DNA of 64,000 nucleotides from an uncultured Chloroflexia bacterium (lineage in GTDB: Bacteria > Chloroflexota > Limnocylindria > Limnocylindrales > CSP1-4), in assembly GCA_963766735.1 (NCBI GenBank), contig CAVYBU010000030.1, positions 96,001 through 160,000 on the forward strand, written 5' to 3'. The notes under the pieces are model-generated. The model saw only the letters and a list, made by a program, of their open reading frames with translations. It did not search any database and was not told the origin of the DNA. The position numbers and the translations under genes were made by a program. Positions within the stretch are counted from its first letter, which is position 1. Every line of letters starts with the position of its first letter. Below, piece by piece: positions 23,929-46,288 of the stretch.

Positions 23929-23937
23929 CGACTCGTC

Positions 23938-25377
23938 CTACAGGACCGAGGAGGGACCGTCGATGACGGCGTCCGTGACCATCCGCCTCAGCACTCGCGC
24001 CGTGGCCGAGCGCCGGTATGCGGCCGTCGAGCGAAGGCCATCACGTGGGTGAATGTCCAGGAGGATGGCCTCGGCAGCACGGGCGGCCACGTCGGTGCCC
24101 GGGACCGCACCCTCCAGGACAGCCTCGGCGCTGGGCGCCCGGATCGGCACTTCGGTGATCGTGCCGACCGCGACGCGGACGTCATGCCAGGCCAACGACC
24201 CGGGATCCTGCCGCCACGCCACCGCGAGCGCGACCTTGGCGAGCGCGAGGGCCCGACGGGTGCCGATCTTGCGGTAGCGCAGCTGCCGACCGGCCCCCAG
24301 CGGGAACTCCATCCGGAGCAGCAGCTCGCCCGGCCGGAGCGCCGTCCGCCGGTAGCCGATGAAGAACGACGCCGCCGGGATCTCCCGCTCGCCGTCCGGT
24401 CCGCCGGCGACCAGGACGGCTTCCGCGGCCAGCACCAGCGGCAGGCTGTCGCCCGCCGGCGAGGCGTTCACCACGTTGCCACCCAGGGTCGCCATGTTCT
24501 GGAGCTGTGTTGCCCCGAACGCGGACGCCATCTGCGCCAGCGCCGGGAGGTGGGCCCGGACAAGCTCCGACCCGCGCAGGTCGGCATAGGTTGCCGTCGC
24601 GCCGACCACGAGCCGGTCGCCCTCGATCCTGATCCCGCGGAGCTCCTCGATCCCGGTCAGGTCGAGCAGCGCCTTGTCGGCCGCCGAGGCGTCGCCCGCG
24701 AGCTCGACCATGACGTCGGTTCCGCCGGCGATCGGTCGCCAGGGGCCCGTTGCGAGGAGCGCATACGCGTCGGTGAGCGTCGTCGGGCGCACGAAGACGG
24801 GCCCGGCCCGCACATCCGCCCCGGCTTCCACGTTGGCGCGGACCGCGGCGCCGCCGAGCTCGCCCGACACCTGCGGCAGCCCGCCCGGCACCTCGCGCGG
24901 CGCCATCGTGGCTGCGTTCGCGATCGCGTCGATGATCTTCATGTACCCGGTGCATCGGCAGAGGTTGCCGGCGATCACCTCGCGGATTGCGGCGTCCGTC
25001 GGTTCGGCGCCGGAGTCGAGGAATGCCCGCGCCGACATCAGGATGCCGGGGGTGCAGATGCCGCACTGCACGCCGCCGGAGTCCACGAAGGCAGCCTGGA
25101 TCGGGTCCAGCCGCCCGTCGCTGGCCAGCCCCTCGACCGTGCGGACTTCGCGGCCCTCCACCTGGCCCATCGGGACCAGGCAGCTGACCACCGGGGTCCC
25201 GTCCACCAGGACCGTGCAGGCGCCGCACTCGCCCTCCCCGCAGCCCTCCTTGGTGCCGGTGAGACCGAGCTCGATGCGCAGGGCATCCAGCAGGCGCAGC
25301 CCGCCGGGTCCGGCGACCTCGACCGGGTTGCCATTGACCGTGAAGCGGGTTGTCCGGGCAGGCGCGGCGGTCGTCAT
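23938..25377 (-). CDS. Molybdenum hydroxylase fused [2Fe-2S] + FAD subunit (CoxS-CoxM/XdhC-XdhB-like)
   Basis: GTKEGCGEGECGACTV, QCGICTPG, GNLCRCTGY, then IAGGTD and NMATLGGNVVNASPAGD FAD motifs. Confidence 0.93.
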   Translation of the reverse strand: MTTAAPARTTRFTVNGNPVEVAGPGGLRLLDALRIELGLTGTKEGCGEGECGACTVLVDGTPVVSCLVPMGQVEGREVRTVEGLASDGRLDPIQAAFVDSGGVQCGICTPGILMSARAFLDSGAEPTDAAIREVIAGNLCRCTGYMKIIDAIANAATMAPREVPGGLPQVSGELGGAAVRANVEAGADVRAGPVFVRPTTLTDAYALLATGPWRPIAGGTDVMVELAGDASAADKALLDLTGIEELRGIRIEGDRLVVGATATYADLRGSELVRAHLPALAQMASAFGATQLQNMATLGGNVVNASPAGDSLPLVLAAEAVLVAGGPDGEREIPAASFFIGYRRTALRPGELLLRMEFPLGAGRQLRYRKIGTRRALALAKVALAVAWRQDPGSLAWHDVRVAVGTITEVPIRAPSAEAVLEGAVPGTDVAARAAEAILLDIHPRDGLRSTAAYRRSATARVLRRMVTDAVIDGPSSVL

Positions 25378-27688
25378 GACCGGACCTCCTCTGCGTCGCG
25401 GTCGGCCGCGTCGAGCGCCGCGAGGATCCGCTCCGGCGTGGCGGGCAGCTCGTGGATCCAGACGCCGGTCGCGTCGTGGATGGCGGCGACGACCGCCGGC
25501 GCCACGACGTCCATCGGCAGCTCGCCGAGCCCCTTGGCGCCGTGTGGCGCGTCCGAGAAGGGGTTCTCCACCAGGACGGCCGTGATCTTCGGCGCGTCGA
25601 GCGAGGTGGGGATCAGGTACTTCGATAGCCGGTCGTTGAGGAACCGGCCGTCCTTGAGCTTCATCTCCTCGATCGTGGCATAGCCGACCGCCTGGAGCGA
25701 ACCGCCCTCCACCTGGCCGGCGGCCATCAGCGGGTTGATGACCGTGCCGCAATCGTCCGCGGAGACGACGTGCCTCACGGCCACCTCGCCGGTGTCGAGG
25801 TCCACCTCGACCTCGACCGTGGCAGCCGCCCAGGAGAACGCCGGGTAGGCGTCACCGACGTAGGTCGCGTCGTCCCAGGTGATGTCCGGGTAGCCGGTGA
25901 ACTGCTCGTCGAAGCGGAGGGCGCCATGGGTCCGGGCGACGTCGCCGTAGACCGCCGAGAACGGCCCGCGGCGCGTTCCTCGACGGCAGCCCGGAGCCGA
26001 TCGGATGCAAGGGCGAGGAGGCCGCCGACGACCATCGTGCTGCGCGAGGCGACGGTCGGGCCGCTGTTGGGGACGACGGAGGTGTCCTGGCGAACGATGC
26101 CCACGTCCTCGAACGGGATGCCGAGCCGGTCCGCCACGATCTGGGCGAAGACGGTCCGCACTCCCTGACCCATCTCGGTCTGGTTGGAGACGGCGAGGAC
26201 GCGCCCGTCCGCCGTCAGCTCCACCGCGGCGATGCTGGCGAGGTACTTCTCGCCACCGCCCGTGAAGCCGGCTCCATGCCAGCCCATCGCGACCCCGATC
26301 CCGGGCGCGCTGCGCGCCCTGCCGGCCGCGCGGTCGACGGTGCGAGCGGCGGCGAAGGTGCTCCGGCGGGTCTCGAAGTCGCTCGCCTCGAGCGCAGCCG
26401 CCAGGGTCTCCCGGGCCGACACGCTGTCCTTCAGCACCTGCTGGGTCGGGGTCAGGTCCCCGAGCTGGTAGGCCCAGCGCGCCCGCAGCTCCGCCGGCGA
26501 GACGCCGAGCGCATCGGCGATCCGGTTGACCTGCATCTCGGCGGCGAACTCCGTCTGGGGTGCGCCGAAGCCGCGGAAGGCGCCCGTGGGCGGCGTGTGG
26601 GTCTGCACTGCTCGCGCGTGGATGCGCACGTTCGGGCAGGCGTACGGGCCGGCCGAGTGGAGGGTCCCGCGGGAGAGCACCACCGACGAGAGGGTCGCGT
26701 AGGCGCCGCCGTCGAAGGTGATGTCGATGTCCTGGGCGATCAGCCGGCCGTCGCGCGTGACGCCGGTGCGATGGGTGATCACCGCCGGATGGCGCTTCGT
26801 GGTGACCGAGATGTCCTCGTGACGATCGTAGATCAGGCGGACCGGGCGACCGACCGCGAGGGCGAGCATGGCGGCATGGATGGCCAGCCCGGACGGGAAC
26901 TCCTCCTTGCCGCCGAAGGCACCGCCGGTGTCCTCCTGGACGACCACGCACCGCTCGCCGTCGAGGCCGAGGGCCCGCTTCATGGCCGCGTGGACGTAGT
27001 ACGGGCACTGCAGCGAGCCGTGGACCGTGACGCCGCCGTCCGGCCGCGGCACGGCGATCATGCCCTGGGTCTCGATGTAGAGCTGCTCCTGGTGGCCGAC
27101 GCGGTAGGTCCCCTCGATGACCAGGTCCGCCTCGGCGAACCCCGCCTCGAGGTCGCCGCGGGCGATGTTGTACTCGGTGAAGACGTGGTCGGACGCGAGC
27201 ATGTCGGTGACGGCCGGGAGCGGCTCCGTACGAAGCCGGATGTGGTCGCGCGCGGCGTGCGCCAGCGCAAGCGTGGGGGCCGCGACGAGGGCGACCGCCT
27301 CGCCGATGTGGCAGATCTCGTCCACCGCGAGGACCGGCTGGTCGTCCTTCATCAGGTGGATGACGTTCTCGCCCGGCACGTCGGCTGCCGTGAGCACCAC
27401 CACCCGGCTCCAGTCGAAGGCGGGGTCGCGCTCGATCCCGAGCAGGCGGGCATGCGGCTCGGTGGCCCGGACCGTGGCGCCGTGCCATGCCCCGGGTACG
27501 ACGAAGTCGTCGGTGTACCGCGTGGCGCCGAGCAGCTTGGCAACGGCATCCACCCGGGGCACGGACCGCGGGTCGGCTGCGGGATCGCGGATCCAGGTGG
27601 CCGGCGACGCCTCTGGTGGGACCGCCACGGGAGGCGCGGTCAGGACAGGCGTCGCGTGGGGGGTGCGGATCGGCGCCTGCGTCGTCAT
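25374..27688 (-). pseudogene. Xanthine dehydrogenase-family molybdopterin subunit with a 1-bp frameshift at ~25962-25975 (possibly a sequencing error)
   Basis: N-terminal part in ORF 25775-27805 (GGAFGGKEE, AFRGFGAPQ, EMGQG, TVASR). C-terminal part in ORF 25374-27488 (EVEVDLDTGEV, GQVEGG, AKGLGELP). Adding one base joins them (…VEERAGGPFSAVY…). Confidence 0.88.
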
Positions 27689-27693
27689 GGCTG

Positions 27694-28644
27694 CTACTCG
27701 TCCTTCACGATGTGGGTCCCGGCCTTGCCGCGGACCGCGCCCAGGAGGTTCTCCGGGTCCGTGATGATGGCTTCGCGGCCACCCCGCTCCAGGAACCAGA
27801 TGCATGCCTCGATCTTGGGCGCCATGCTGCCCTTTGCGAAGTGCCTGCCCTCGGCAAGATACGTCCTGGCCTCGGACAGCGTCATCCTGTCGATGAACCG
27901 CTGCTCAGGCGTGCCGAAGTCAAGGGCGACCCGGTCCACGGCGGTGGCGATCACCAGGAGGTCGGCCCCGAGATCGCTGGCCAGCAGGGAGCTGGCGAAG
28001 TCCTTGTCGATGACCGCGGGAGTGCCGTGCAGGTTTCCGCCCGCGTCCGCCACGACCGGGATCCCGCCGCCACCAACCGTGATGACGATGAAGCCGGCGC
28101 CAACCAGGGTCCTGACGGCGTTGAGCTCGACGATCCGCATCGGCCTCGGCGAGGCGACCACGCATCGCTTGCCTCGACCGGCATCCTCGACGACCGTCCA
28201 GCCGTCGGCCTGCCGCTTCGCCGCAGTCTCGTCATCGAGGAACGAGCCGATCGGCTTGGTCGGGTTGGCGAACGCCGGGTCGTTCCGGTCCACCTCCACC
28301 TGGGTCACGACGGTGACCGCTTCCTTGTCCAGCCCGAGGCGGGCGAAGTCGTGGCCCAGCGCCTGCTGAAGCTCGTACCCGATTGCGCCCTGCGAGTCGG
28401 CGCCACAGACGTCGAGCGGCACCTCGTGCAGCTCGTGGGCGGCGAGCTCCGAGCGGCGCAGGATGAAGCCGACCTGGGGCCCGTTGCCGTGCCCGATCGC
28501 CATCCGCCAGCCATCCGCGATGAGGGCCGCCAGGTGGTGGCTGGTCTGCTCGAGCGCCGCGATCTGGTCCGGCACCGACTGGTGCTGCTTGTCCTTGATC
28601 AGCGCATTGCCGCCGATCGCGACAACCATGAGGGGACTCGTCAT
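27694..28644 (-). CDS. arcC: Carbamate kinase (YqeA/ArcC)
   Basis: VVAIGGNAL, GHGNGPQVG, PTKPIG, VVASPRP, GGGGIPV, VIDKD, GSMAPK. Confidence 0.95.
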   Translation of the reverse strand: MTSPLMVVAIGGNALIKDKQHQSVPDQIAALEQTSHHLAALIADGWRMAIGHGNGPQVGFILRRSELAAHELHEVPLDVCGADSQGAIGYELQQALGHDFARLGLDKEAVTVVTQVEVDRNDPAFANPTKPIGSFLDDETAAKRQADGWTVVEDAGRGKRCVVASPRPMRIVELNAVRTLVGAGFIVITVGGGGIPVVADAGGNLHGTPAVIDKDFASSLLASDLGADLLVIATAVDRVALDFGTPEQRFIDRMTLSEARTYLAEGRHFAKGSMAPKIEACIWFLERGGREAIITDPENLLGAVRGKAGTHIVKDE

Positions 28645-28747
28645 CCCATTCCTCCCCGACCCGTGGGCCGGTTGCAGATACGGTCGATTCCGGGGTTCGG
28701 CCGCGACCCGGACGGGCCACGGCCGAGAGTCAGACGCAGCGTGACTC

Positions 28748-29725
28748 TCAGCGCATCGTGAGCGCCATCACCGCCTTCTGGGCGTGCAGCCGGTTCTCGG
28801 CCTCGTCGTACACGACCGAGTGCGGGCCGTCGATGACGGCGTCCGCGACCTCGATGTTCCGGTCGGCCGGGAGTGGGTGCATATAGATCGCGTCGTCGGC
28901 GGCGAGGGCCATGCGGCGCTCGTCGGTGATCCAGTCCGTGTACTTCCTGCCGATCTCGGCACCCTCCTCGTCGCTCTTCGCGACGAGGAGCGGGCCCCAG
29001 CTCTTGGCGTAGATCACGTCGGAGCCCTTGAAGCCGGCGTCGAAGTCGTCCATCAGCTCGAGGCTGCCGCCCGACGCACGGGCGTTCTCGGCTGCCTGGT
29101 CAACGTACTCCTGGGGCAGCCTGTACTCGGGTGGATGCACCAGGCGCACGTTCATCCCGAAGCGGGTGGTGGCCAGGGTCAGGTCGAGCGGCACGGAGAG
29201 CGGCTTCTGGTAGCTGGCCGCGTACGCCCAGCTGACCGTGATCGTCTTCCCGCGCAGGTCGCTCTTCTTCTCCTTCATCGTCAACAGGTCGGCGAGGATC
29301 TGGTGCGGATGGAAGAGATCGCACTGCATGTTCAACACGGGAACGCGGCTCGCCTGGGCCACGGCGCGCTGGTAGGCGTTGCCCTCGCCCCAGGTGACGT
29401 GGCGGATGGCGATCCCATCGTTGTAGCGGCCCAGGATCTCGCCGATCTCCTTGGGGGTGTCCCCGTGGGCGATCTGCGTCGTCCGGCTCTCGATGAACTG
29501 GGCGTGGCCGCCCAGCTGGGCCATCCCCGCCTCGAACGACGCGCGGGTGCGCGTGCTCGAGAAGAAGAAGAGCATGGCCAGCACCTTGTTATCGAGCAGG
29601 GGGTGCTGGATGCCGAGGGCGCGCTCCATCTTGAGACGGGCGGCGACCTCGAGGATGGAATCGACCTCCTCCCTCGTCCATTCCTGGAGCGAGATGAGGT
29701 CGCGGCCGCGAAGGCCGGTCTGCAT
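28748..29725 (-). CDS. YgeW-like (knotted-type) carbamoyltransferase
   Basis: STRTRASF, NMQCDLFHPHQ, SWAYAASYQKPLSVP (YgeW-type loop), YAKSW, MHPLPADR, EAENRLH. Confidence 0.85.
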   Translation of the reverse strand: MQTGLRGRDLISLQEWTREEVDSILEVAARLKMERALGIQHPLLDNKVLAMLFFFSSTRTRASFEAGMAQLGGHAQFIESRTTQIAHGDTPKEIGEILGRYNDGIAIRHVTWGEGNAYQRAVAQASRVPVLNMQCDLFHPHQILADLLTMKEKKSDLRGKTITVSWAYAASYQKPLSVPLDLTLATTRFGMNVRLVHPPEYRLPQEYVDQAAENARASGGSLELMDDFDAGFKGSDVIYAKSWGPLLVAKSDEEGAEIGRKYTDWITDERRMALAADDAIYMHPLPADRNIEVADAVIDGPHSVVYDEAENRLHAQKAVMALTMR

Positions 29726-29752
29726 GATGCGGACTCCTTCCGGGTGCTCGGG

Positions 29753-30706
29753 CTACTCGGCCGCGCCGAGGATGAGCGTGAGGAGCGACATCTTCAGGGC
29801 GACGCCGTTGAAGGCCTCGGCCCAGTAGCGCTGGTGGCGGGTGGCGTCCACGTCGGGCAGCAGCTCGTCCATGCGCGGCAGGGAGTGCAGGATCATCGAG
29901 CTGCGCTTCGCCTTCTCCTTGAGAAGCTGGCGGGTGATGCAGTACTCCGGCGGCGTGAGGCCCACCTGGTCACCGCGCTCCACCCGCGACGAGGTGTAGT
30001 CGGCCTGGACCACCGGCTCCATGTAGATGACGTCGGCCTCGCCGATCACGTCACGAACGTCGCCCGCTTCGACATAGTCGACGTTCAGTTCGTCGATCTC
30101 GGCCTTGAACTCGGGCAGGAGCGACATGTCGGGCGGGCCGACCACGATCGCCTTGGCGTCGAACTGGCTGAGCGCGTAGAGGATCGAATGCATGGTCCGC
30201 ATGCGCATGTCGCCGACCAGGAGCCAGGTCAGCCCGTCGAGGGTGCCCTTCTCGAGCAGCGTGGTGTAGAGGTCGGTCAGAACCTGGGTCGGGTGCTCAC
30301 CCCAGCCGTCGCCGCAGTTGATGATCGGCACGGAAGACCACTTCGCGGCCTCTGCCGGCGCGCCCTGCTGGAAGTGGCGGATCGCGATCACGTCCGCGTA
30401 GTACTCCAGCATGTGGAAGGTGTCCTTGATCGACTCCTGGTAGAAGTCGCCGGCGCGGGTCATCTTCGAGTCCGCGAAGCCCAGGACGTGCCCGCCAAGG
30501 CGATGCATGGCGGCTTCATGGGACAGGCGCGTCCGGGTGCTGGGCTGGTAGAACGCCGTCAGCAGCGTCTTGTGCTTCAGGAGATCCGTGTTGCGCCGGT
30601 CGCGGGCGAAGGGACGCAGGTCGTCGGCGACCTGGAACACGCGGAAGTACTCATCGCGACTGAAGTCCTTCAGGGACAGGATGTCGCGGCCGGCGAAGCT
30701 CCTCAT
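29753..30706 (-). CDS. ATCase-like carbamoyltransferase with an altered amino-acid pocket
   Basis: YQPSTRTRLSHEAAMHRLGG, INCGDG..EHPTQ, RTMHS, HSLPR. YMEPVVQ replaces the canonical YMTRVQ. Confidence 0.85.
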   Translation of the reverse strand: MRSFAGRDILSLKDFSRDEYFRVFQVADDLRPFARDRRNTDLLKHKTLLTAFYQPSTRTRLSHEAAMHRLGGHVLGFADSKMTRAGDFYQESIKDTFHMLEYYADVIAIRHFQQGAPAEAAKWSSVPIINCGDGWGEHPTQVLTDLYTTLLEKGTLDGLTWLLVGDMRMRTMHSILYALSQFDAKAIVVGPPDMSLLPEFKAEIDELNVDYVEAGDVRDVIGEADVIYMEPVVQADYTSSRVERGDQVGLTPPEYCITRQLLKEKAKRSSMILHSLPRMDELLPDVDATRHQRYWAEAFNGVALKMSLLTLILGAAE

Positions 30707-32138
30707 GACCTGGTGTCCTCCTTGGGACTATGACGACGACCATCCGGGTCCGGGGACACCTGGCCGTCCGGTTCTCGCTGGACGCCGCTGAAGACAACGG
30801 CGACCGTTTCGTCTGGATCGAGCGCGCCTGCGCGCGCCAGGTGGAGCAGCCCGGCGAAGCCGGAGGAGCCCGTATGGTCGACAAGGATCCCGGTTGCCGC
30901 GCGGGCGAGGCTGTTGGCCTCTTCCAGCGTCGGCTCGTCGACCACGATAGGCGTTCCTCCCGTCAGGAGCATGCCCCGCACGACGGCCTGCCAATCGTAG
31001 GTCTCGTCGTCCAGTATGCCGTGGGCGATGCTGTGAGGAGCCTCTTCCCACGGCCACATGAATTCGGCGCGGTGGCGTGCCGCATAGGCAAGCGCCGCGT
31101 CCACGCTCTCACCCGCGACCACGCGCGCGGCCACGCGCTCGTGGGCCCGTGCGAGCGGGAAGGCACCCTGGGTCTGCACGGTATCGAAGCGCGGCAGCGG
31201 GATGTCCATCCCGGCAGCGGGGGCGTTCTCGAACCCGGCCATGATCGACGATGCGAAGGCGCCGCCGCCCACCTGGATCACCACGCGGTCGATTCGCTCC
31301 GGCCCGTTCGTCTGGCCCACAGCCGCCGCCATCTCGAGCCCCAGGGTCTCGCCGCCTTCCACCGCGAACGCGTTGAGGTTGCCCTGACAGGTGAACGGTG
31401 CCGCCCCGGCCGCGATCGCGTCCAGGAGGCGCAGGTACGTCGGGTCGCCGGCCACGCCCGGTTGCCGTTCGCAGATCTCCAGCTCGGCGCCCAGGGTGCG
31501 CAGCCGGGTGACGACCGCCTCGTCTGCATCGGGCGGGATGAAGACGAGGAGCCGTCGCTCCGCGGCCCGCGCCACGACCGCAGCCGCGAGTGCCGCGTTG
31601 CCGCAGCTGGCGATCGCCAGCGGTGTGTCGCCCGTCACGGTGCCCGCAACCTCGAGCTCGACCAGCGAACCGAAGAGATGACGGGCCTTGTGCGAACCCG
31701 ACACGTTGCCGGTTTCGTCCTTGACCCACACCCCGCCACGTGCAGAGAAGCCGAGGCGCTCCGACAGCACCGCACTGCGCGCGAATGGCGTCACCCGGAA
31801 GCCGTGGTCGGCCACGCGGGCGACCGCGGCGTCCAGGCGCTCCACCAGGGCGACATATCGCTCGTCCGTCCAGCCCGCGGCCAGGGCCGCATGCCAGGCG
31901 TGGAACAGGCGTCGGTAGGCGACGAACGGATTCTCAGAGGGTGCCGGCGTCATCGGCGAAGCCGCCGGGTCCAGCAGTCGCACCAGGATGTGATCGATGC
32001 CGTCAGCCGGCCTGGCGGCCGGGCAGATGAGCGGTACCGGGGTGCCGATGGTCGGACGGAAGCCGCAACCCGCGCACGCAAACCAGGTCGCGGGCATCTC
32101 GCCTGGTTCGCGGAGGCCGGGCGCCTCCAACCGCGCCG

Positions 32139-32142
<4 letters not shown>
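30703..32142 (-). CDS. PLP-dependent fold-type II enzyme (threonine synthase-like, N-terminal CxxC)
   Basis: [32 protein letters not shown]. Confidence 0.85.
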
Positions 32143-33638
<1,496 letters not shown>

Positions 33639-33741
33639 CCTGCACTCCCTGCGACGCCCCTGGCGCTCGCGGCATGCGGCCGGGACGGACCCCATCCCGG
33701 GTCGCTGTCGACCGTGTTGGGTGGCAAATCGCCTGCCCGAA

Positions 33742-33806
33742 GAGGTTACCATATAGGAGCGGTTTCATTACATTGGTTACACTCACCTCAGCGGATATGT
33801 AACCTC
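33742..33806. promoter_or_regulatory. AT-rich divergent promoter region with GGTTAC/GTAACC operator-like repeats
   Basis: GAGGTTAC 33742-33749, GGTTACA 33775-33781, TGTAACCTC 33798-33806 (GGTTACA-N16-TGTAACC inverted repeat). Confidence 0.6.
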
Positions 33807-33899: not shown

Positions 33900-36560
33900 A
33901 TGGACATCGCGTTTTCGCTGAACGGTCAGCCGGTCACCGTCCAGGTTCGCGAGGGTGAGCGCCTGCTGGAGGTCCTTCGCGAGCGCCTTGGCCTGCGGTC
34001 CATGAAGGACGGCTGTGCCCCGGAGGGCTCCTGTGGGGCCTGCACGGTGATGGTCAACGGGCGGGCAGCCGTCTCCTGCGCCCAGGATGCCAGGCGCGTT
34101 GATGGCGCGGACGTGGTGACGCTGGAGGGCCTTCCCGAGGAGCACCGTTCGCTCTGGGCGGACGCGTTCGTGGCGACCGGCGGGGCGCAGTGCGGCTACT
34201 GCACGCCTGGCATCGTCATGAAGGCCGAGGCAACGCTCGCTCGCGACCCGTCGCCCACCCGGGACGCCCTGGCGCGCTCGCTCGCTGGCAACCTCTGCCG
34301 CTGCACGGGCTACGTCAAGGTGCTCGACGCAATCGAACAGGTGGCGGCGGTGCGGCGCGGCGAAGCGGCACCTCCGGACATGGATCTCGGCACCGGTGTC
34401 GGTACCCGCGCGCAGCGCTACGACGGCCGGGCGCTCGTCCTGGGTGAGGCGCCGTTCGTGCGCGACATGGCGCTGCCGGGAATGCTCCACGGAGCGGTCA
34501 CGCTCTCCGCCCACCCGCGGGCACTCGTGCGCAGGATCGACACCTCGAAGGCAGAGGCCGTCCCGGGCGTCGTGCGCGTCGCGACGTGGCGCACCATCCC
34601 CGGCGTTCGCCACCAGGGCCTGATCTTCCCGGACTGGCCGCTCATGGTCGCCGAGGGCGAGGAGACCCGCTACGTCGGCGACGTGCTGGCGGCCGTCGCA
34701 GCCGAGACGCGCCACGCCGCCCGTGAGGCGGCGGCGCTCGTCGAGGTCGAGTACGAGGTCCTCGAACCGGTCCTCGACATGATGGCAGCCCTCGACGCCG
34801 GGGCGACCCGCGTGCACGACAAGGGCAACCTCCTCGCCACCTGCGAGGTCAAGCGCGGCGACACCGACGCGGCCATCGCGGGCGCGGCGCACGTCGTCCA
34901 CGAGACGTTCCGCACCCAGGCCGTCGACCACGCGTTCCTCGAGCCGGAGGCCTGCTTCGTCGTCCCGGCAGCCGGGGGCGCCCGCGATGACGGCGGCGGC
35001 GGCGTCAAGCTCCACGTCTACTCCCAGGGCCAGGGCGTCTGGGAGGATCGCCACCAGATCGCGTCCATCCTCGACCTGGACGAGCAGGAGGTCCGGGTCA
35101 CGCAGGTGCAGACCGGCGGCGGCTTCGGCGGCAAGGAGGACCTCAGCATCCAGGGACACGCCGCCCTGCTTGCACACCTGACCGGGCGACCCGTGCATCT
35201 CGCCCTCTCGCGCGCGGAGAGCCTCCGGCTCCATCCGAAGCGCCACGCCCTGCTGATGGACTACACCGTCGGCTGCGACGCCGATGGGCACCTCGTCGGG
35301 GTCCGGGCGCGGATCGTCGGCGACACGGGCGCCTACGCGAGCGTCGGCGACAAGGTCCTGGAGCGCGCCGCCGGCCACGCCTGCGCCGCCTACAAGGTTC
35401 CCAACGTGGACGTGGAGGCACGGACGGTCTACACGAACAACCCGCCCTGCGGCGCGTTCCGCGGCTTCGGGGCTGTCCAGGTCAACTTCGCCATCGAAGG
35501 CTGCCTCGACCGGCTCGCCGAGAAGGTCGGGATCGACGGCTGGGAGATGCGCTGGCGAAATGCCCTCGAGACCGGCGATCGCTATGGGACCGGCCAGAAG
35601 CTGGGCCCGGGCGTCGGGGTGAAGAAGACGCTGCTGGCCGTCAAGGATGCCTACGACGCGGCGCCGTTCGCCGGCATCGCCTGCGCCGCCAAGAACGTCG
35701 GGGTCGGCAATGGCTTCCCCGAGCGCGGGCGCGCCATCCTGCGGCCGGAACCGGACGGCTCGGTCACGCTGTACCACTCGTGGACGGAGATGGGCCAGGG
35801 CGTCCACACCGTCATGCGCCAGATCGTCTGTGAGGAGCTGGGTCTCGAGCCTGGCATGGTCCGCGTCGTGGTCGACACGGAACGCGAGCTCAACACGGGC
35901 GAAACCACCGCGTCACGGGCGACGACCCTCGGCGGCCAGGCGGTCATCGATGCCTGCCGCAAGGTCAGGGAAGCCGCCGGCGACAGGCCGCTCAGCCGGC
36001 TCGAGGGCCGCGAGTTCTACGGCGAGTACCTGGTCGACTGGACAACGAAGAACGACGTCCCCGAGCCGGTCACGCACCTCTGCTACGGCTGGGCGACCCA
36101 GGTCGTCGTGCTCAACGAGGACGGCACGCTCCAGAAGGTCATCGCGGCCCAGGACGTGGGCAGGGTGATGAACATCTCCGGGATGGAGGGACAGGTGGAG
36201 GGCGGCGTCCACATGGGCCTCGGCATGGCGCTCACGGAGGACCTGGGCCTCAGGGGCGGCATGCCGGCCACCGCGCTCAAGGACCTGGGCATCATCCCGG
36301 CCGCGGGCATGCCGCCGGTGGAGTGCATCCTGGTCGAGGAGCCGCAGCCGGAGGGTCCCTACGGCGCCAAGGGTGCCGGCGAAGCGGTCCTGGTCCCGAC
36401 GCCCGGCGCGGTGGCCGGCGCGCTGCACGCCTTCGACGGCAGCTATCGAACCACCCTGCCGATGCGTGACACGATCGCGGCCCGGACGGCTGCCCCGCGC
36501 GTCGCGCGCATGACGGGCGGGGCTTCGACCGGCGGCCCGGCGGAAGGCCCGCCGGCATGA
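33900..36560 (+). CDS. Molybdenum hydroxylase with fused 2x[2Fe-2S] + Mo domains (selenium-dependent xanthine dehydrogenase/XdhAC-like)
   Basis: SMKDGCAPEGSCGACTV, QCGYCTPG, NLCRCTGY, GGGFGGKED, GAFRGFG, EMGQG, TTASR, AKGAGE; no FAD domain. Confidence 0.92.
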   Translation: MDIAFSLNGQPVTVQVREGERLLEVLRERLGLRSMKDGCAPEGSCGACTVMVNGRAAVSCAQDARRVDGADVVTLEGLPEEHRSLWADAFVATGGAQCGYCTPGIVMKAEATLARDPSPTRDALARSLAGNLCRCTGYVKVLDAIEQVAAVRRGEAAPPDMDLGTGVGTRAQRYDGRALVLGEAPFVRDMALPGMLHGAVTLSAHPRALVRRIDTSKAEAVPGVVRVATWRTIPGVRHQGLIFPDWPLMVAEGEETRYVGDVLAAVAAETRHAAREAAALVEVEYEVLEPVLDMMAALDAGATRVHDKGNLLATCEVKRGDTDAAIAGAAHVVHETFRTQAVDHAFLEPEACFVVPAAGGARDDGGGGVKLHVYSQGQGVWEDRHQIASILDLDEQEVRVTQVQTGGGFGGKEDLSIQGHAALLAHLTGRPVHLALSRAESLRLHPKRHALLMDYTVGCDADGHLVGVRARIVGDTGAYASVGDKVLERAAGHACAAYKVPNVDVEARTVYTNNPPCGAFRGFGAVQVNFAIEGCLDRLAEKVGIDGWEMRWRNALETGDRYGTGQKLGPGVGVKKTLLAVKDAYDAAPFAGIACAAKNVGVGNGFPERGRAILRPEPDGSVTLYHSWTEMGQGVHTVMRQIVCEELGLEPGMVRVVVDTERELNTGETTASRATTLGGQAVIDACRKVREAAGDRPLSRLEGREFYGEYLVDWTTKNDVPEPVTHLCYGWATQVVVLNEDGTLQKVIAAQDVGRVMNISGMEGQVEGGVHMGLGMALTEDLGLRGGMPATALKDLGIIPAAGMPPVECILVEEPQPEGPYGAKGAGEAVLVPTPGAVAGALHAFDGSYRTTLPMRDTIAARTAAPRVARMTGGASTGGPAEGPPA

Positions 36561-36626: not shown

Positions 36627-37649
36627 ATGTCGGCGGTCACACCGGGTCTCGTCTGCGCCCACCATCACCTCTACTCGGCACTGGCGCGGGGGATGCCGGC
36701 GCCGCCGAAGGTGGCGACCAACTTCGGTGAGATCCTCGAGCAGGTCTGGTGGCGCCTGGACACCGCGCTCGATCTCGAGATGATCCGCTGGTCGGCGATG
36801 CTCGGCGCGCTGGAGGCTCTCGAGAACGGCACCACGGCGATCATCGACCACCACGAATCGCCCAACGCCATCGAAGGCAGCCTGGACGTGATCGCAGAGG
36901 CCTGCGCACAGGTCGGCGTCCGCTCCCTGCTCGCCTACGGCATCACCGACCGCCACGGGCCCGATGGCGCGCGGCGCGGCCTGGCCGAGAACGAGCGCTT
37001 CATCCGGGCAGGCGGTCGGGGCCTGGTGGGCATCCACGCCGCCTTCACGTGTTCCGACGAATCGCTGGCGGCGGCGGCCGGCCTGGCCGAGGACCTTGGG
37101 GTGGGCGTGCATATCCACGTCTGCGAGGGGATAGGCGACATCGACGCGCCGGGACGCCTGGCCGGCCTGACCCGCGACGACTGGCTGCTCAGCCACTGCG
37201 TCCACCTGCCCACGGATCACGACCTGCGCGGGACCATCCTCCACAACCCGATGTCCAACCTGAACAACGCCGTCGGGTACGCGAACCCCGCCCGCTTCTC
37301 CAATCCGGTCGCGCTGGGTACCGACGGGATCGGCGGCAACGTCCTGGAGGCGTTCCGACTGGCCTACGTCATGCAGCGTTCGGTGGACGTGACCTGTGGG
37401 CCCGACACGGCCTGGTCGTGGCTCGAGGCCGGCTGGGATCTCGTGCCGGAGGCCCGCGAGGACGCGGTGACCTGGTCGTATGACCCGATGGACCCCTGGC
37501 ACATCGCCTTCACCCCGGGAATCATGCCGCGCCAGGTCACGATCGGCGGCGAGGTCGTGTTCACCGACGGCAGGCCGACCCGCGTCGACGCCGGCGAGAT
37601 CCGCGCCAAGGCCCGCGAGCAGGCCGCCCGTCTGCACGCCCGCCTCTGA
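36627..37649 (+). CDS. ssnA: SsnA-like amidohydrolase (short form)
   Basis: PGLVCAHHHLYSALARGM, LEQVWWRLD, GTTAIIDHHESPNAIEGSL, GIHAAFT, HNPMSNLNNAVG, LGTDG. Confidence 0.85.
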   Translation: MSAVTPGLVCAHHHLYSALARGMPAPPKVATNFGEILEQVWWRLDTALDLEMIRWSAMLGALEALENGTTAIIDHHESPNAIEGSLDVIAEACAQVGVRSLLAYGITDRHGPDGARRGLAENERFIRAGGRGLVGIHAAFTCSDESLAAAAGLAEDLGVGVHIHVCEGIGDIDAPGRLAGLTRDDWLLSHCVHLPTDHDLRGTILHNPMSNLNNAVGYANPARFSNPVALGTDGIGGNVLEAFRLAYVMQRSVDVTCGPDTAWSWLEAGWDLVPEAREDAVTWSYDPMDPWHIAFTPGIMPRQVTIGGEVVFTDGRPTRVDAGEIRAKAREQAARLHARL

Positions 37650-37678
37650 GCCCCGACGCACCCCTGAGCCCCGACGCA
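37646..37678. repeat. 15-bp direct repeat x2 (18-bp period) between ssnA and ygfK
   Basis: CTGAGCCCCGACGCA at 37646 and 37664. Confidence 0.8.
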
Positions 37679-37701
37679 ACCGCCTCGACGAGGGAGCCCT
37701 G

Positions 37702-41127
<3,426 letters not shown>

Positions 41128-41221: not shown

Positions 41222-42127
41222 TCACGGTTTGCCGTATGTCGACCCGAATGCCGCCAACTCCGCCAGCAGCGCACCAACCGCAGGGTGGCCTCGTCGCTCG
41301 GAGCGGACGGCGGCCAGAACTCGTCGTTCCAGCGGCGGTCGGAGCGGGACGATACGTGCCCGGACCGTGCGGTCGTGGAGGGCCAGCCCTGGAATGACGC
41401 CGACGCCGAGGCCGGCCGCGACGAGGGCGAGGGTCACCGAGTGGTCCTTGCAGTGAGACAGCACGTTCGGGTCGAAGCCGGCCCGCCGACAGGCGCGCAC
41501 GGTGACCTCGAAGATGCTGCTCGTGTCCGTGTCCATGAACCAGGTGTGATCACGGAGATCGGCGAGCGCGATGCCACCGGCAGGCGTCTGCTCGTCGGGC
41601 GGAAGCGCGACATAGAGCGGGTCGCGGAAGATCTCGACGGTATCGATGCCCGGCGACCAGGCCTCACTCCCCTCGTCGTACTCGTCGACGACTGCGAGAT
41701 CGATCTCGTCCACCTGCAGGGCGATGAGGCTCTCGCTCGACTCCAGGTCGCGCAGCATCAGGCGCAGCTTCGGATGATTGCGACGGAGCGCCTCGAGGAC
41801 CTGCGGCATCACCGCCCGGGCCGCAGTGGGGAAGGCCGCAACCCTGAACGATCCGACGATCTCGTCCCGGGCGGCGGCCAGCTCGGCTTCCGCGGCGGCG
41901 ACCGCCGCGGCGATCACATCCGCGTGACGGACAAGCATCAGCCCGGCGTCGGTCAGGCGCACCAGGCGGCCATGGGGCTCCAGCAGGGGCGCGCCCGCCT
42001 CCTGCTCCAGGATCTTGAGCTGCTGCGAGACAGCGGACGGCGTGATCGACATCGCCTGTGCGGCAGCCTTGAGGGTGCCGCGGCGTGCGACCTCGCGCAG
42101 GAGCTGGAGGCGCCACATCCCGAGCAT
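41222..42127 (-). CDS. LysR-family transcriptional regulator
   Basis: GTLKAAAQAMSITPSAVSQQLKILEQEAG HTH, LTDAG, LVAAGLGVGVIP. Confidence 0.93.
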   Translation of the reverse strand: MLGMWRLQLLREVARRGTLKAAAQAMSITPSAVSQQLKILEQEAGAPLLEPHGRLVRLTDAGLMLVRHADVIAAAVAAAEAELAAARDEIVGSFRVAAFPTAARAVMPQVLEALRRNHPKLRLMLRDLESSESLIALQVDEIDLAVVDEYDEGSEAWSPGIDTVEIFRDPLYVALPPDEQTPAGGIALADLRDHTWFMDTDTSSIFEVTVRACRRAGFDPNVLSHCKDHSVTLALVAAGLGVGVIPGLALHDRTVRARIVPLRPPLERRVLAAVRSERRGHPAVGALLAELAAFGSTYGKP

Positions 42128-42289
42128 CGCCCACTGAGGCTACAGCATTCCGAAGGGCCCCGCGACGGGCCCAGCGGAGCCGTACAATCCACAGCGAAGC
42201 TCGGTACGCGGCACCGGACAGGAGAGTTGGACCGGGGCCCGTGTCGAGGAGCGCGTCCCTCCATATCACGGCACGGAGGAGTCTGACCC

Positions 42290-43531
42290 ATGAGCGGACG
42301 AAGACCGCTGATCGCACTCCTGTTGACACTCGCGCTCGCCACGGGCGCGTGCTCCGAGGGAGCGACCAGCACGCCATTGGCGGGTGCGACGGACGCCGCC
42401 ACGGCGGATCCCGGCGGCGCCGGTCTCCAGATCCCGGACGTGGTGGACGGCAAGTTCAACGTCGCGATGGTCCTGATCGGGCCCCATGACGACGGCGGCT
42501 GGAGCCAGGCCCACTACGAGGGCCTCGACTACGTCGGCAAGAACATGGCCGATTCCCACGTGGCCTACATCGAGAACGTGCCCGAAGGCGCGGACTCCGA
42601 GCAGGTCTTCCGGAGCCTTTCGCGCAAGGGCTTCGACTTCATCATCGGCACCTCCTTCGGGTACATGGACCCGATGGCGACCGTCGCCGAGGAGTTCCCG
42701 GACATCACGTACCTCCACCTGACGGGGTACAAGTCGAACTTCACGAACTTCGGCAACTTCTTCGGCGCGGTCGAGGACATGAAGTACCTCGCCGGCATGC
42801 TCGCCGGGTCGCGCGCCAAGCTGGACGGCAACCCCAAGGTCGGCTACATGGCCACCTTCCCCATCCCGGAGGAGATCCGGCTGGGCAACGCCATCATGCT
42901 GGGCGTCAAGAAGACCTGCCCCGAGTGCACGATGGACATCCGCTGGATCAACACCTGGCACGATCCGGTCAAGGAGAAGGATGCGGCTGCCTCGCTGTTC
43001 GACGCGGGCGCCCAGGTCGTGTTCACCGGTGCCGACACCCCGGCCGTCGCGGACGTCGCGCAGGAGAAGGGGAAGTGGGGCGTCACGTACGACCACCCGT
43101 CCTCCTGCAAGGTCGACGCCTGCCTGACGGCCCCCTACTGGATCTGGGGGCCGGAGTACCTGCGCATCGCCGAGCAGGTCAAGGCCGGTACCTACGAGGC
43201 CGGCTACGAGTACTTCGATGCCGACAGCCAGGCCATGGGCCTGTTCGGGTTCATGGACGGCGAGACGCCCCAGCCGGGGATCAGCGACCTCCCGGCCGCC
43301 GATGTCCAGGCGGTCAAGGACACCCTGGCCAAGATGCTCACGGGTGAGTTCAACCGCTTCGACGTCTTCGCCGGTCCGATCACGGACAACACCGGCAAGG
43401 CGGTCCTCGCGGCCGGCGCCAAGCTGGAACAGGCCGACCTCGACCAGTTCCCGCCGGGAGCCGAGGGCAACCCCTGCACGGTCTGCATGCAGTGGCTTGC
43501 CGACGGCATCACCGGGACGATCCCCGAGTAG
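42290..43531 (+). CDS. BMP-family ABC transporter substrate-binding lipoprotein (purine/nucleoside)
   Basis: Lipobox LATGAC; GPHDDGGWSQAHYEG, IIGTSFGYMD, YLAGMLAG, WINTWHDPVKE. Confidence 0.92.
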   Translation: MSGRRPLIALLLTLALATGACSEGATSTPLAGATDAATADPGGAGLQIPDVVDGKFNVAMVLIGPHDDGGWSQAHYEGLDYVGKNMADSHVAYIENVPEGADSEQVFRSLSRKGFDFIIGTSFGYMDPMATVAEEFPDITYLHLTGYKSNFTNFGNFFGAVEDMKYLAGMLAGSRAKLDGNPKVGYMATFPIPEEIRLGNAIMLGVKKTCPECTMDIRWINTWHDPVKEKDAAASLFDAGAQVVFTGADTPAVADVAQEKGKWGVTYDHPSSCKVDACLTAPYWIWGPEYLRIAEQVKAGTYEAGYEYFDADSQAMGLFGFMDGETPQPGISDLPAADVQAVKDTLAKMLTGEFNRFDVFAGPITDNTGKAVLAAGAKLEQADLDQFPPGAEGNPCTVCMQWLADGITGTIPE

Positions 43532-43536
43532 CAGCC

Positions 43537-43574
43537 TCGTCCGGCCCGCGGCGCAACCGCCGCGGGCCGGACGA
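43537..43574 (+). terminator. Intercistronic 17-bp stem-loop after the substrate-binding gene (mRNA stabiliser or partial terminator)
   Basis: TCGTCCGGCCCGCGGCG-caac-CGCCGCGGGCCGGACGA; no U-tract. Confidence 0.75.
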
Positions 43575-43605
43575 TTCCGAGGAGCGGTCCCTGATCTCGC
43601 CTGAC

Positions 43606-45165
43606 GTGTCGACCGATCCCCAGGCCACGCCGCTCGCCGTCGAGCTACGGGGCATCGTCAAGCAGTTCCCCGGCGTCCTCGCGAACGACCAGGTCGACTT
43701 CGAGCTCCGGCCGGGCGAAGTTCACGCGCTGCTCGGGGAGAACGGCGCCGGCAAGAGCACGCTCATGAACATCCTGGCGGGTCTCTACAGGCCCGACGCC
43801 GGGGTGATCCGCGTGGGTGGCGCGATCCAGGACTTCCACTCGCCCCGCGACGCCATCGCGGCGGGCCTCGGCATGGTCCACCAGCACTTCACGCTGGTCG
43901 ACTCGCAGACCGTGACCGAGAACGTACTCCTGGGCCTGGACGAGCCGCGCTTCCGCATGCGCCTTGGCCGGTACGAGGACCGGATCGCCGACCTGTCGGA
44001 GTCGTTCGGGCTGCGGGTCGACCCGCGGGCCAAGGTCTGGCAGCTCTCCGTGGGCGAGCAGCAGCGGGTCGAGATCCTGAAGATGCTCTACCGCGGCGTC
44101 CACATCCTGATCATGGACGAGCCAACGGCGGTCCTGGCACCGCAGGAGACCGAGGAGCTCTTCAGGACGTTGCGCTCCATGATCGCGAGCGGCCACTCCA
44201 TCGTCTTCATCAGCCACAAGCTGACCGAGGTCGCCTCGATCGCCGACCGGATCACGGTCATGCGCCGGGGACGGGTCACCGCGGCCGGGATCGCCACGGC
44301 CACGACCACGCGCACCAGCCTCGCCGAGCTGATGGTCGGGCGACCCGTGATCGAGGTGCTCGAGCGAACGCCGTTCAACCCGGGCGATGTCATCCTGTCG
44401 GTGCGGGACGTCGAGGCAATGAACGACCGCGGCCTGCCGGCCCTGCGGGGGGTCTCCTTCGACGTGCGCGCGGGAGAGATCCTGGGGATCGCCGGCGTTG
44501 CCGGCAACGGCCAGTCCGAGCTCGCGCAGGTGATCACCGGACTCCGTCCCTGCCATGGCCACATCGAGGTCGCGGGTGCCGAGACGGCCAACCATCCGAC
44601 CGGCGAGACGATCCGGCGCGGGGTCGCCCACGTTCCAGAGGACCGGACCGGCGTCGGCAGTGCGCCCAACCTGTCCGTCATGGACAACCTGATCATGAAG
44701 AGCTACAGGCGCCCGCCGATCGCCCGTGGCTGGGTCGTGGACCAGGCCGCCGCCCGCCGGATCTCGGAGGGCCTCCGCGAGGGGTACCAGATCCTGACCC
44801 CATCGGTCGACACGGCAGCCCGGCTGCTCTCCGGTGGCAACCTCCAGCGCCTGATCCTGGCCCGGGAGATCGATCAGGACCCGCGGCTGCTCGTGGCCGT
44901 CCAGCCGACGCGCGGACTCGATGTCGGGGCCATCGAGGGCGTACATCGCCTGCTCCTCGCCCGCCGGGAATCGGGCTCCGCGACGATCATGATCTCGGAG
45001 GACCTCGACGAGGTGCTCGCCCTCTCGGACCGGATCGCCGTCATGTACGAGGGGCACCTCCACGGCCCGTTCAGCGCGGCCGAGGTTGACGCCCGGGGCC
45101 TGGGCATGCTCATGACCGGCGGCGACTGGCAGCCCGCCTCCTCTACGACCGGAGCCGCGTCATGA
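43606..45165 (+). CDS. Nucleoside/sugar ABC transporter ATP-binding protein (tandem ABC domains); start may be CTG at 43591
   Basis: LGENGAGKST, MVHQHF, LSVGEQQRVE, MDEPT, LSGGNLQR, QPTRGLDVG. Confidence 0.93.
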   Translation: MSTDPQATPLAVELRGIVKQFPGVLANDQVDFELRPGEVHALLGENGAGKSTLMNILAGLYRPDAGVIRVGGAIQDFHSPRDAIAAGLGMVHQHFTLVDSQTVTENVLLGLDEPRFRMRLGRYEDRIADLSESFGLRVDPRAKVWQLSVGEQQRVEILKMLYRGVHILIMDEPTAVLAPQETEELFRTLRSMIASGHSIVFISHKLTEVASIADRITVMRRGRVTAAGIATATTTRTSLAELMVGRPVIEVLERTPFNPGDVILSVRDVEAMNDRGLPALRGVSFDVRAGEILGIAGVAGNGQSELAQVITGLRPCHGHIEVAGAETANHPTGETIRRGVAHVPEDRTGVGSAPNLSVMDNLIMKSYRRPPIARGWVVDQAAARRISEGLREGYQILTPSVDTAARLLSGGNLQRLILAREIDQDPRLLVAVQPTRGLDVGAIEGVHRLLLARRESGSATIMISEDLDEVLALSDRIAVMYEGHLHGPFSAAEVDARGLGMLMTGGDWQPASSTTGAAS

Positions 45166-46286: not shown

Positions 46287-46288
46287 CC

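Follow-up and report, generated by a model that had tools for sequence, protein, structure and literature searches.

A pseudo-ATCase encoded in a reductive urate gene cluster of an uncultured Chloroflexota bacterium: a candidate phosphorolytic replacement for YgeY

XdhD, YgfK and SsnA are marker enzymes of the reductive uric acid pathway published in 2025, in which, according to the available text of Li 2025 (PMC12507026), urate is converted to 2,8-dioxopurine, then to its dihydro form, to ureidomethylhydantoin and to 2,3-diureidopropionate. In the known clusters, YgeW and carbamate kinase remove one ureido group with a gain of ATP, the hydrolase YgeY removes the other, and YgeX turns diaminopropionate into pyruvate in the final step (PMC12507026). 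The Liu 2025 preprint, in the part available, likewise has YgeW and carbamate kinase making ATP from 2,3-diureidopropionate, places the YgeW reaction first and gives an (R)-configuration; in Li 2025 (PMC12507026), YgeW takes the 2-ureido group and YgeY the 3-ureido group. The authors of these two studies differ over the ureido group on which YgeW acts. A commentary (Percudani 2025, PMC12990295) names as undecided both which ureido group goes first and whether albizziin or 3-amino-2-ureidopropionate is the intermediate. Here we describe a gene for an aspartate carbamoyltransferase (ATCase)-like protein at 29753..30706 (minus strand) in a 64,000-nt stretch of an uncultured Chloroflexota genome (contig CAVYBU010000030.1; hereafter the window, in which coordinates are counted unless otherwise said), where it lies beside genes for all three marker enzymes.

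A second precedent is provided by the pseudo-ATCases, which Barba 2013 (PMC4016543) describes, in the text available, as ATCase-annotated paralogs found beside a genuine pyrB: they keep STRT and HPTQ, have lost RXQ, carry an altered HPLP, and branch with the ATC II-type ATCases or at their root. HSLP is given as a pseudo-ATCase signature in Table 1 of that paper. Rxyl_2847 of Rubrobacter xylanophilus (subgroup 1), encoded next to a carbamate kinase gene, cleaves allantoate by phosphorolysis to ureidoglycine and carbamoyl phosphate (PMC4016543). Subgroup 2 (Nocardioides sp. JS614) adjoins a ygeW homologue, xdhABC and hyuA, subgroup 3 is marine and has HSLP, and neither is given a function in the available part of Barba 2013 (PMC4016543). 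On the OTC branch of the superfamily, the available text of Shi 2015 describes DPTCase, which carbamoylates the beta-amine of diaminopropionate and has an HDLP motif.

Judging from its pocket residues and its genomic setting, we put the chances at about even that the enzyme described here phosphorolyses the 2-ureido group of 2,3-diureidopropionate or of 3-amino-2-ureidopropionate, and so would stand in for YgeY. The gene has an ATG start with an AAGGAGG Shine-Dalgarno box 10 nt 5' of it, shares ATGA with the stop of the upstream gene for a pyridoxal phosphate (PLP) enzyme (PLP enzyme 1), and has a GC content at third codon positions of 0.94 (window GC 71%). Its 317-aa translation matches the Pfam families OTCace_N (149.6 bits) and OTCace (70.2 bits). 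Among proteins of solved structure, those closest in sequence are ATCases (P. abyssi 1ml4, 229.9 bits; E. coli 1d09, 193.2 bits), plant ATCases also being near, and an AlphaFold2 model built with 102 aligned sequences as input (mean pLDDT 94.4) has the P. abyssi ATCase-PALA structure 1ml4 as its top structural match (TM 0.89/0.92). Identity to the ATCase chains listed among the structure matches is 33-40%, and those matches include no solved non-canonical ATCase paralog.

ATCases use L-aspartate: in E. coli PyrB, R167 binds its alpha-carboxylate, R229 and Q231 bind its beta-carboxylate, and K84 contacts it as well. We took residue equivalences from a HMMER alignment to E. coli ATCase (1d09_A) and used MAFFT alignments as a second method, comparing 21 family rows with 44 canonical rows, which were defined by an R in the R229 column and a Q in the Q231 column; conservation was counted over 122 homologues with at least 74% identity to the protein. 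The carbamoyl-phosphate motifs are intact, as a preliminary description of the locus had stated. STRTR (residues 56-60; 30527..30541, minus strand, as for all motifs below) corresponds to E. coli S52-R56, and its S56 and R58 never vary across 102 aligned ATCase-like proteins; R105 is kept as R110; HPTQ at 138-141 corresponds to H134/Q137; and HSLPR (274-278; 29873..29887) replaces HPLPR, with P266 becoming S275. The RTMHS motif (170-174; 30185..30199) is also kept, and R170, the equivalent of R167, is invariant in 122/122 homologues. It directly follows a one-residue deletion (G166), such that Y165/G166 is represented by M169 plus the deletion in the MAFFT alignment.

The remainder of the aspartate pocket is widely altered. 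The 80s loop, KMTRAGDFYQES (residues 81-92; 30431..30466), has S80, K83 and K84 all changed, to R84, D87 and F88, respectively, with Y89 inserted, and the K84 equivalent is F88 by HMMER and Y89 by MAFFT; K81-Y89 and E91-S92 are invariant in 122/122 homologues and Q90 in 121/122. Downstream, YMEPVVQADY (228-237; 29996..30025) replaces YMTRVQKERL, with the substitutions T228 to E230, R229 to P231, Q231 to V233 and R234 to D236. Those at R229 and Q231 agree between HMMER and MAFFT, confirming the replacement of YMTRVQ by YMEPVVQ (228-234) reported earlier, and Y228-Q234, D236 and Y237 are invariant in 122/122 homologues (A235 in 117/122). Phe/Tyr, Pro and Asp thus stand where PyrB has three basic residues (K84, R229 and R234), and Glu takes the position of Thr228. 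E50 is likewise changed, to Q54, with FYQPSTR in place of FxExSTR (MAFFT). RxQxxER of the 240s region is an ATCase discriminator in the available text of Shi 2015; here its R, Q and final R are lost (MAFFT), with A235 at the position of E233 if the HMMER alignment is extended. R234 is kept in 44/44 canonical rows, independently of how these rows were selected. Relative to ATCase, the family also has its own insertion of 5-7 residues in the 240s loop. Among the 122 homologues, W135, GDMRMRTMH, E243, T251 and HSLPRMDE are invariant too, as are 123 of the 317 columns overall.

Catalytic residues kept, aspartate ligands lost and new residues invariant in 122 homologues together point to a working enzyme with a different second substrate. 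The alignments therefore bear out the earlier suggestion of a catalytically equipped carbamoyltransferase that probably lacks the ligands of the aspartate beta-carboxylate, and the invariant residues rule out a decaying pseudogene. A pseudoenzyme with no catalytic role, such as one that regulates the neighbouring carbamoyltransferase or serves as its scaffold, would be in keeping with the published name pseudo-ATCase and with an identity across phyla (74-98%) above that of the neighbouring proteins; yet R167 and every ligand of carbamoyl phosphate are retained without variation, and a member of the wider clade is active, making this scarcely credible. Retention of R170 with loss of R229, Q231, K84 and R234 fits an N-carbamoyl-alpha-amino acid with a non-carboxylate side chain, and the pattern would suit an acceptor nitrogen on the carboxylate-bearing carbon.

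A search of 1.84 billion cluster representatives returned 10,672 proteins at E <= 0.001, of which 862 reach E <= 1e-30. The full-length representatives of the family are P0123 (78% identity) and P0125 (74%), after which full-length relatives drop to 50% or less. Of 88 aligned full-length representatives, many have in common an 80s loop of the T-R-A-G-D type, a missing residue just ahead of R167 and the absence of TRxQ, and over positions 229-234 these sequences diverge from one another. A maximum-likelihood tree was built quickly from 86 rows (garbled P0127, P0138 and P0170 left out; the PyrB resident in the same genome added as outgroup); in it, the non-canonical rows form one group of 37-40 rows inside the E. 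coli/P. abyssi-type ATCases with SH-aLRT support of 83-93, below the 95 mark, and the family itself is a clade with support 99. By its sequence, the protein belongs to the pseudo-ATCase clade named in 2013. Compared with the published descriptions, its HSLP agrees with subgroups 2 and 3 and its gene context resembles that of subgroup 2; the VxP of subgroup 3 matches only if read two residues downstream, as V233-Q234-P235 in P0123 and P0125, where the protein itself has Ala.

Automated annotation does not make this distinction. The equivalog model TIGR00670 (asp_carb_tr) passes the protein by 5 bits (242.2 vs a cut-off of 236.95), NF002032 does not (209.6 vs 263), and every source-given name among 120 listed homologues is aspartate carbamoyltransferase, as the preliminary description had anticipated in expecting pipelines to call the gene pyrB. 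A genuine second or catabolic ATCase, as annotated, would account for the TIGR00670 score, the ATCase fold and the public names. However, RxQxxER, K84, E50 and HPLP are all changed, the context consists of catabolic purine genes, and a profile search of the same genome (94% complete) found a canonical pyrB elsewhere, the gene that the preliminary description had proposed to look for. It lies at G000:C17:37400-38317 (305.9 bits to TIGR00670), carries SKGES, LRIQKER and HPGP, and adjoins a dihydroorotase-like gene. The gene described here is not the cell's pyrB, and a second true ATCase is very improbable. Nor is it a recent copy of the resident pyrB: the two products share 30.6% identity, which rules out recent duplication. 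The dihydroorotase-like gene (G000:C17:38422-39759) aligns to its profile as two separate segments, the second interrupted by a TGA, which may reflect a frameshift, an assembly error or just two alignment pieces.

The distribution of the gene ties it to the reductive urate pathway. We searched 151 genomes drawn evenly from the class of the source organism, in which related genomes are not independent; negative tallies include seven unpublished genomes (G067, G087, G091, G096, G106, G112 and G123), none of them a carrier. The gene is present at 79% identity or more in 16/151 genomes, a 17th match (37% identity) being another carbamoyltransferase. The same 16 genomes, and no others, have an SsnA scoring at least 212.9 bits, with the remaining SsnA matches at 183.1 or below, and 14/16 carriers have both genes on the same contig, at a distance of 6.6-21 kb. 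YgeY (TIGR03526) exceeds its cut-off in 0/151 genomes and reaches E 1e-30 in 0/16 carriers; in the source genome its top match scores 95.9 bits vs a cut-off of 321.5. YgeX (TIGR01747) has no real match there either (top match 32 bits vs 274).

The gene is the third in a minus-strand operon whose order is PLP enzyme 2, PLP enzyme 1, the ATCase-like gene, an OTC-like carbamoyltransferase, carbamate kinase and a xanthine-dehydrogenase-type enzyme. PLP enzyme 2 (32139..33752, minus) is distantly cysteine-synthase-like (PF00291, 37.7 bits; cysK, 74.6 vs a cut-off of 351; CysK in the PDB, 70 bits). PLP enzyme 1 (30703..32226, minus), of fold type II, is distantly threonine-synthase-like (PF00291, 115.3 bits; threonine synthase in the PDB, 41 bits), with an SGSHK lysine motif, a Cys-rich N-terminal stretch and a true start that is probably internal. 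These two very divergent fold-type-II proteins are conserved upstream and may together constitute a new pair of lyases acting on diaminopropionate or albizziin. The second carbamoyltransferase (28748..29725, minus; 325 aa) follows after a 27-nt spacer, both genes having Shine-Dalgarno boxes. It is OTC/AOTC/YgeW-like by Pfam and motifs (SSTRTR, HPHQ and HPLP; HPHQ and HPLP stand in for HCLP, and a DxxxSMG loop is lacking) and falls under all curated NCBIfam cut-offs (AOTCase 253.6/288, OTC 251/306, YgeW 187.5/453); its top PDB match is the AOTCase 3l04 at 211 bits, with YgeW 3q98 at 170. It too forms an uncharacterised subfamily. Its Actinomycetota versions share 47-53% identity and score higher on the YgeW models (252 bits). 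Carbamate kinase (27694..28644, minus) exceeds the cut-offs of NF009007 (393.7 vs 266) and TIGR00746 (361.5 vs 358.25).

XdhD, SsnA and YgfK are encoded divergently from the operon. The XdhD-type molybdenum enzyme (33900..36560, plus; TIGR03311, 952.9 vs 830), assigned to the step from urate to 2,8-dioxopurine, and the YgfK flavoprotein reductase (37480..41127, plus; TIGR03315, 873.3 vs 835, matching from residue 76 of the open reading frame) exceed their curated cut-offs, and SsnA (36627..37649, plus; NF005540, 258.4 bits) does not. This SsnA is a short form covering profile positions 57-340 of 444, or about 55-340 of 441, without both terminal segments, and its reading frame overlaps the start of that of YgfK. 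The short form occurs in 13/16 carrier genomes, and full-length forms (408-425 bits) in the other 3, which makes it a lineage trait rather than a broken gene. In some relatives the open frame around SsnA spans 900-1100 aa, and fusions are possible. The ATCase-like protein is not itself YgeW by the curated models, which it matches in the N-terminal domain only and far under the cut-offs (TIGR03316, 37.2 vs 500; NF005538, 36.4 vs 453): a YgeW orthologue is thereby ruled out.

The same arrangement recurs in related loci. At least 585 stretches encode close relatives (from 596 pattern-scan matches, one genome per species). We searched the window proteins by tblastn against the best 80 of these 585 (74-98% identity), which come from metagenome-assembled genomes whose titles name Chloroflexota or Limnocylindrales, Gaiellales, Acidimicrobiales, Thermoleophilia and, in some cases, other groups, and which were picked by similarity to the protein and are not an unbiased sample. 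In the 42 full loci (8 kb or more of sequence to either side), we found the OTC-like gene in 41/42, PLP enzyme 2 in 40/42, XdhD in 38/42, PLP enzyme 1 in 37/42, SsnA in 34/42, carbamate kinase in 32/42 and YgfK in 11/42. Over all 80 loci, the OTC-like gene lies immediately downstream of the homologue in 54 and PLP enzyme 1 immediately upstream in 56. In the single full locus that lacks the OTC-like gene, a copy lies about 12 kb off. Four loci have carbamate kinase directly after the homologue and contain no OTC-like gene. Five genomes with loci lacking it were searched (three from those four loci), and 5/5 carry a gene of the same type elsewhere, in two of them on the same contig about 12 kb and 14 kb off. 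Where YgfK is missing, both loci annotated have an F420-type luciferase-like oxidoreductase (L056:15790-16785 and L060:16737-17741), a replacement noted for Chloroflexota in the available text of Li 2025 (PMC12507026). These two loci also encode extra amidohydrolases (L056:17928-19724 and L060:8404-9699); both match 8-oxoguanine deaminase above the curated cut-off and were rejected as the missing hydantoinase.

Across phyla, the ATCase-like protein (74-98% identity) is far more alike than PLP enzyme 1 (48-67%), PLP enzyme 2 (61-74%) and carbamate kinase (41-83%; L005-L084), a contrast that is partly built in since the loci were picked by likeness to this protein. The contrast still suggests unusually tight constraint or recent horizontal spread. 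Beyond carbamate kinase and read the same way, the region 22846-27805 (minus) holds the operon's xanthine-dehydrogenase-type enzyme, the second such enzyme of the cluster after XdhD (Fe-S/FAD and Mo subunits; 23938..27805, minus), together with a URO-D/MtaA-like methyltransferase-fold gene that recurs in just 3/80 related loci. A LysR regulator (minus) and a BMP-family ABC transporter (plus) flank the cluster at 41222..47257. Contigs of four metatranscriptomic runs (three studies; sediment and ice) cover 28-29 of 30 bins of 27694-33752 at 90-99% likeness, and most, at 90-95%, derive from relatives. These matches, which include the ATCase-like gene, are a weak hint only: DNA carry-over is possible, and contigs are no proof of transcription.

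Taken with the residue pattern, this context suggests how the pathway could run. XdhD, YgfK, SsnA and D-hydantoinase would convert urate to 2,3-diureidopropionate. The OTC/AOTC-like neighbour would then act first, phosphorolysing the 3-ureido (side-chain) group, and the ATCase-like enzyme would phosphorolyse the 2-ureido group on the carboxylate-bearing carbon, freeing the alpha-amino group needed by the two PLP enzymes. Both carbamoyl phosphates would pass to the adjacent carbamate kinase, for up to two ATP per urate. We assign the 2-ureido group to the ATCase-like enzyme and the 3-ureido group to its neighbour because R167 is kept and R229/Q231 are lost, and because of the DPTCase and allantoate precedents; the order, neighbour first, follows what the Liu 2025 preprint, in its available part, found for YgeW. 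The first-choice substrate would accordingly be 3-amino-2-ureidopropionate, with 2,3-diureidopropionate itself as the alternative, and the stretch with E230 and D236 would suit a neutral (ureido) or cationic (ammonium) side chain. The preliminary description had tied the substrate to the neighbouring pathway, and the urate-pathway context agrees with it, making the C3 intermediates 2,3-diureidopropionate, albizziin or 3-amino-2-ureidopropionate, and diaminopropionate the obvious candidates. It had also pictured a carbamoylating enzyme, and there we part from it: phosphorolysis is, in our judgement, the most likely physiological direction. Substrate, regiochemistry, reaction direction and ATP yield are all things that we infer.

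The substrate could instead be a different ureido compound: allantoate or ureidoglycine (UGTCase), carbamoyl-beta-alanine, or an unknown metabolite. The sole assayed pseudo-ATCase described in the available text of Barba 2013 (PMC4016543) cleaves allantoate and is encoded beside carbamate kinase, and there are many related subfamilies whose pockets carry other residues (37 further non-canonical rows in the MAFFT comparison, and likewise in the tree). However, neither uricase, HIU hydrolase nor allantoinase was found in the window annotation. In the source genome as a whole, no oxidative route to allantoate turned up: the uricase family PF01014 has no match (the search did not extend to further kinds of urate oxidase), and the top-scoring hit for allantoinase, at 250.9 bits vs a cut-off of 357.85, is D-hydantoinase. 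The strict co-occurrence and linkage with SsnA and XdhD also speak against a different compound, as do motifs unlike those listed for UGTCase in the available text of Shi 2015; moreover, a dihydropyrimidinase-type hydantoinase is near-universal in the class and the ATCase-like gene is patchy. We regard such a substrate as unlikely.

Several observations weigh against phosphorolysis of the 2-ureido group in place of YgeY. D-hydantoinase exceeds its cut-off in 126/151 genomes, including 16/16 carriers, and lies within the cluster in G146 and about 4 kb past SsnA in G023; being near-universal in the class and outside most clusters, it makes the ring-opening step available but is not diagnostic. 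Carbamate kinase was not found within 10 kb in 10/42 full loci. The two PLP enzymes are not YgeX orthologues, so that the end of the pathway is itself something we infer. From D-hydantoinase and the published (R)-configuration it follows that the N-carbamoyl acid is D-configured, which would be unusual for the superfamily. We know of no transcarbamylase that acts on a D-configured N-carbamoyl amino acid.

The pocket itself supplies two further points. No Arg aligns with R229, whose retention the preliminary description had considered damaging to its case; nonetheless, R241 (121/122) and R244 (119/122) are conserved in the 240s-loop insertion (pLDDT about 72-75) and could reach the substrate and replace R229 as an anion ligand, so that the side chain may still meet a charged ligand. 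The Glu that the preliminary description had singled out is there, but as Glu230 it aligns with T228 and not R229 (HMMER), and E50, S80, K84, Y165/G166, R234 and P266 change along with it.

The choice of nitrogen is a last difficulty. If the regiochemistry in the available text of Li 2025 holds (2-ureido for YgeW, 3-ureido for YgeY) and the OTC-like neighbour is the YgeW equivalent, then the ATCase-like enzyme would replace YgeY by taking the 3-ureido group, converting albizziin (2-amino-3-ureidopropionate) to diaminopropionate, with the neighbour taking the 2-ureido group. An acidic Glu230 or Asp236 could then hold the free alpha-ammonium. Yet albizziin has no carboxylate on the carbon of the reacting nitrogen although the R167 equivalent is kept, and its carboxylate would fall at the former R229/Q231, both lost; in addition, short diamino-acid side-chain amines are OTC-branch and not ATC-branch substrates in the available text of Shi 2015. 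We consider this assignment distinctly unlikely.

Cleaving the 2-ureido group would amount to an uncharacterised activity, N-alpha-carbamoyl-2,3-diaminopropionate (or 2,3-diureidopropionate):phosphate carbamoyltransferase, possibly on a D-substrate, in a pathway yielding two ATP per urate with no YgeY; we hold this fuller claim to be plausible, with the chances somewhat below even. What is already known is that a misannotated pseudo-ATCase can be a catabolic carbamoyltransferase in purine breakdown; what is new is the subfamily, its pathway and its likely substrate. That an ATCase paralog might have acquired another specificity, as the preliminary description proposed, is therefore not new in kind, since pseudo-ATCases have been described and one has been assayed on allantoate (Barba 2013). 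Full-text literature searches turned up neither a function assigned to an ATCase paralog in SsnA clusters nor a variant with two carbamoyltransferases. In the available text of Li 2025 (PMC12507026), the SsnA network is coloured by PF00185 as "YgeW", under which the gene described here would be counted as YgeW, a point on which the supplements of that paper and of the preprint may bear.

If the proposal is right, both ureido groups of the C3 remnant of urate become carbamoyl phosphate and yield two ATP by substrate-level phosphorylation, not one, the second phosphorolytic step doubling the ATP per urate. The variant would then be widespread in sediment and soil Chloroflexota and Actinomycetota, everywhere labelled pyrB. 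Since the cluster pairs an ATC-type carbamoyltransferase with an OTC-type one, it also offers a natural system for the question of ureido regiochemistry, and the family offers co-varying specificity residues (E50, S80, K84, R229, Q231, R234 and P266) for studying how the ATCase pocket is retuned. The balance of urate flux against energy conservation is a design question for uricolytic probiotics in the available text of Li 2025 (PMC12507026), and a phosphorolytic replacement for YgeY is a candidate part for them.

Compared with the catalytic chain of ATCase (E. coli 1d09, P. abyssi 1ml4), the protein has the fold, the length, the carbamoyl-phosphate site and R167 in common, and differs at K84, R229, Q231, R234, E50, Y165/G166 and P266 and in having no pyr genes nearby. 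With the pseudo-ATCases of Barba 2013 it shares more: a pyrB-annotated paralog beside a genuine pyrB, a purine-catabolic context with carbamate kinase nearby, STRT and HPTQ kept, RxQ lost and HPLP altered. It differs from them in its reductive SsnA/YgfK context, in which uricase and allantoinase were not found. Subgroup 1 is printed with HPLA and AIA/AIS/SIA, whereas the protein has E-P-V-V-Q-x-D-Y with R84, D87, F88 and Y89. Rxyl_2847 is a precedent for N-carbamoyl phosphorolysis on a diureido acid, allantoate, one carbon shorter than 2,3-diureidopropionate. For this UGTCase the available text of Shi 2015 gives S102, K106, S258, K261 and HTLP, to which R84, F88/Y89, P231, V233 and HSLP would correspond here if the positions are equivalent, as they seem to be.

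Among the enzymes of the urate pathway itself, YgeY of E. coli and Clostridium (an M20 peptidase-family amidase) is the presumed functional counterpart, removing the second ureido group to give diaminopropionate; it has an unrelated fold, is hydrolytic, yields neither carbamoyl phosphate nor ATP, and was not found in the 16 carrier genomes. The knotted carbamoyltransferase YgeW (E. coli, C. sporogenes), which works with the carbamate kinase YqeA, would share with the ATCase-like enzyme both the pathway and the ATP-coupled ureido phosphorolysis of 2,3-diureidopropionate, but it belongs to another branch of the superfamily (TIGR03316, 37 bits vs 500), and the enzyme described here is additional to the YgeW/AOTC-like enzyme and not a substitute for it. 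DPTCase of zwittermicin and viomycin biosynthesis also links diaminopropionate with the ureido-propionate albizziin. In the available description it is an OTC-branch, HDLP enzyme that acts on the beta-amine in a biosynthetic direction, whereas the protein described here is of the ATC branch with HSLP, and DPTCase is more likely a good model for the OTC-like neighbour than for the ATCase-like enzyme.

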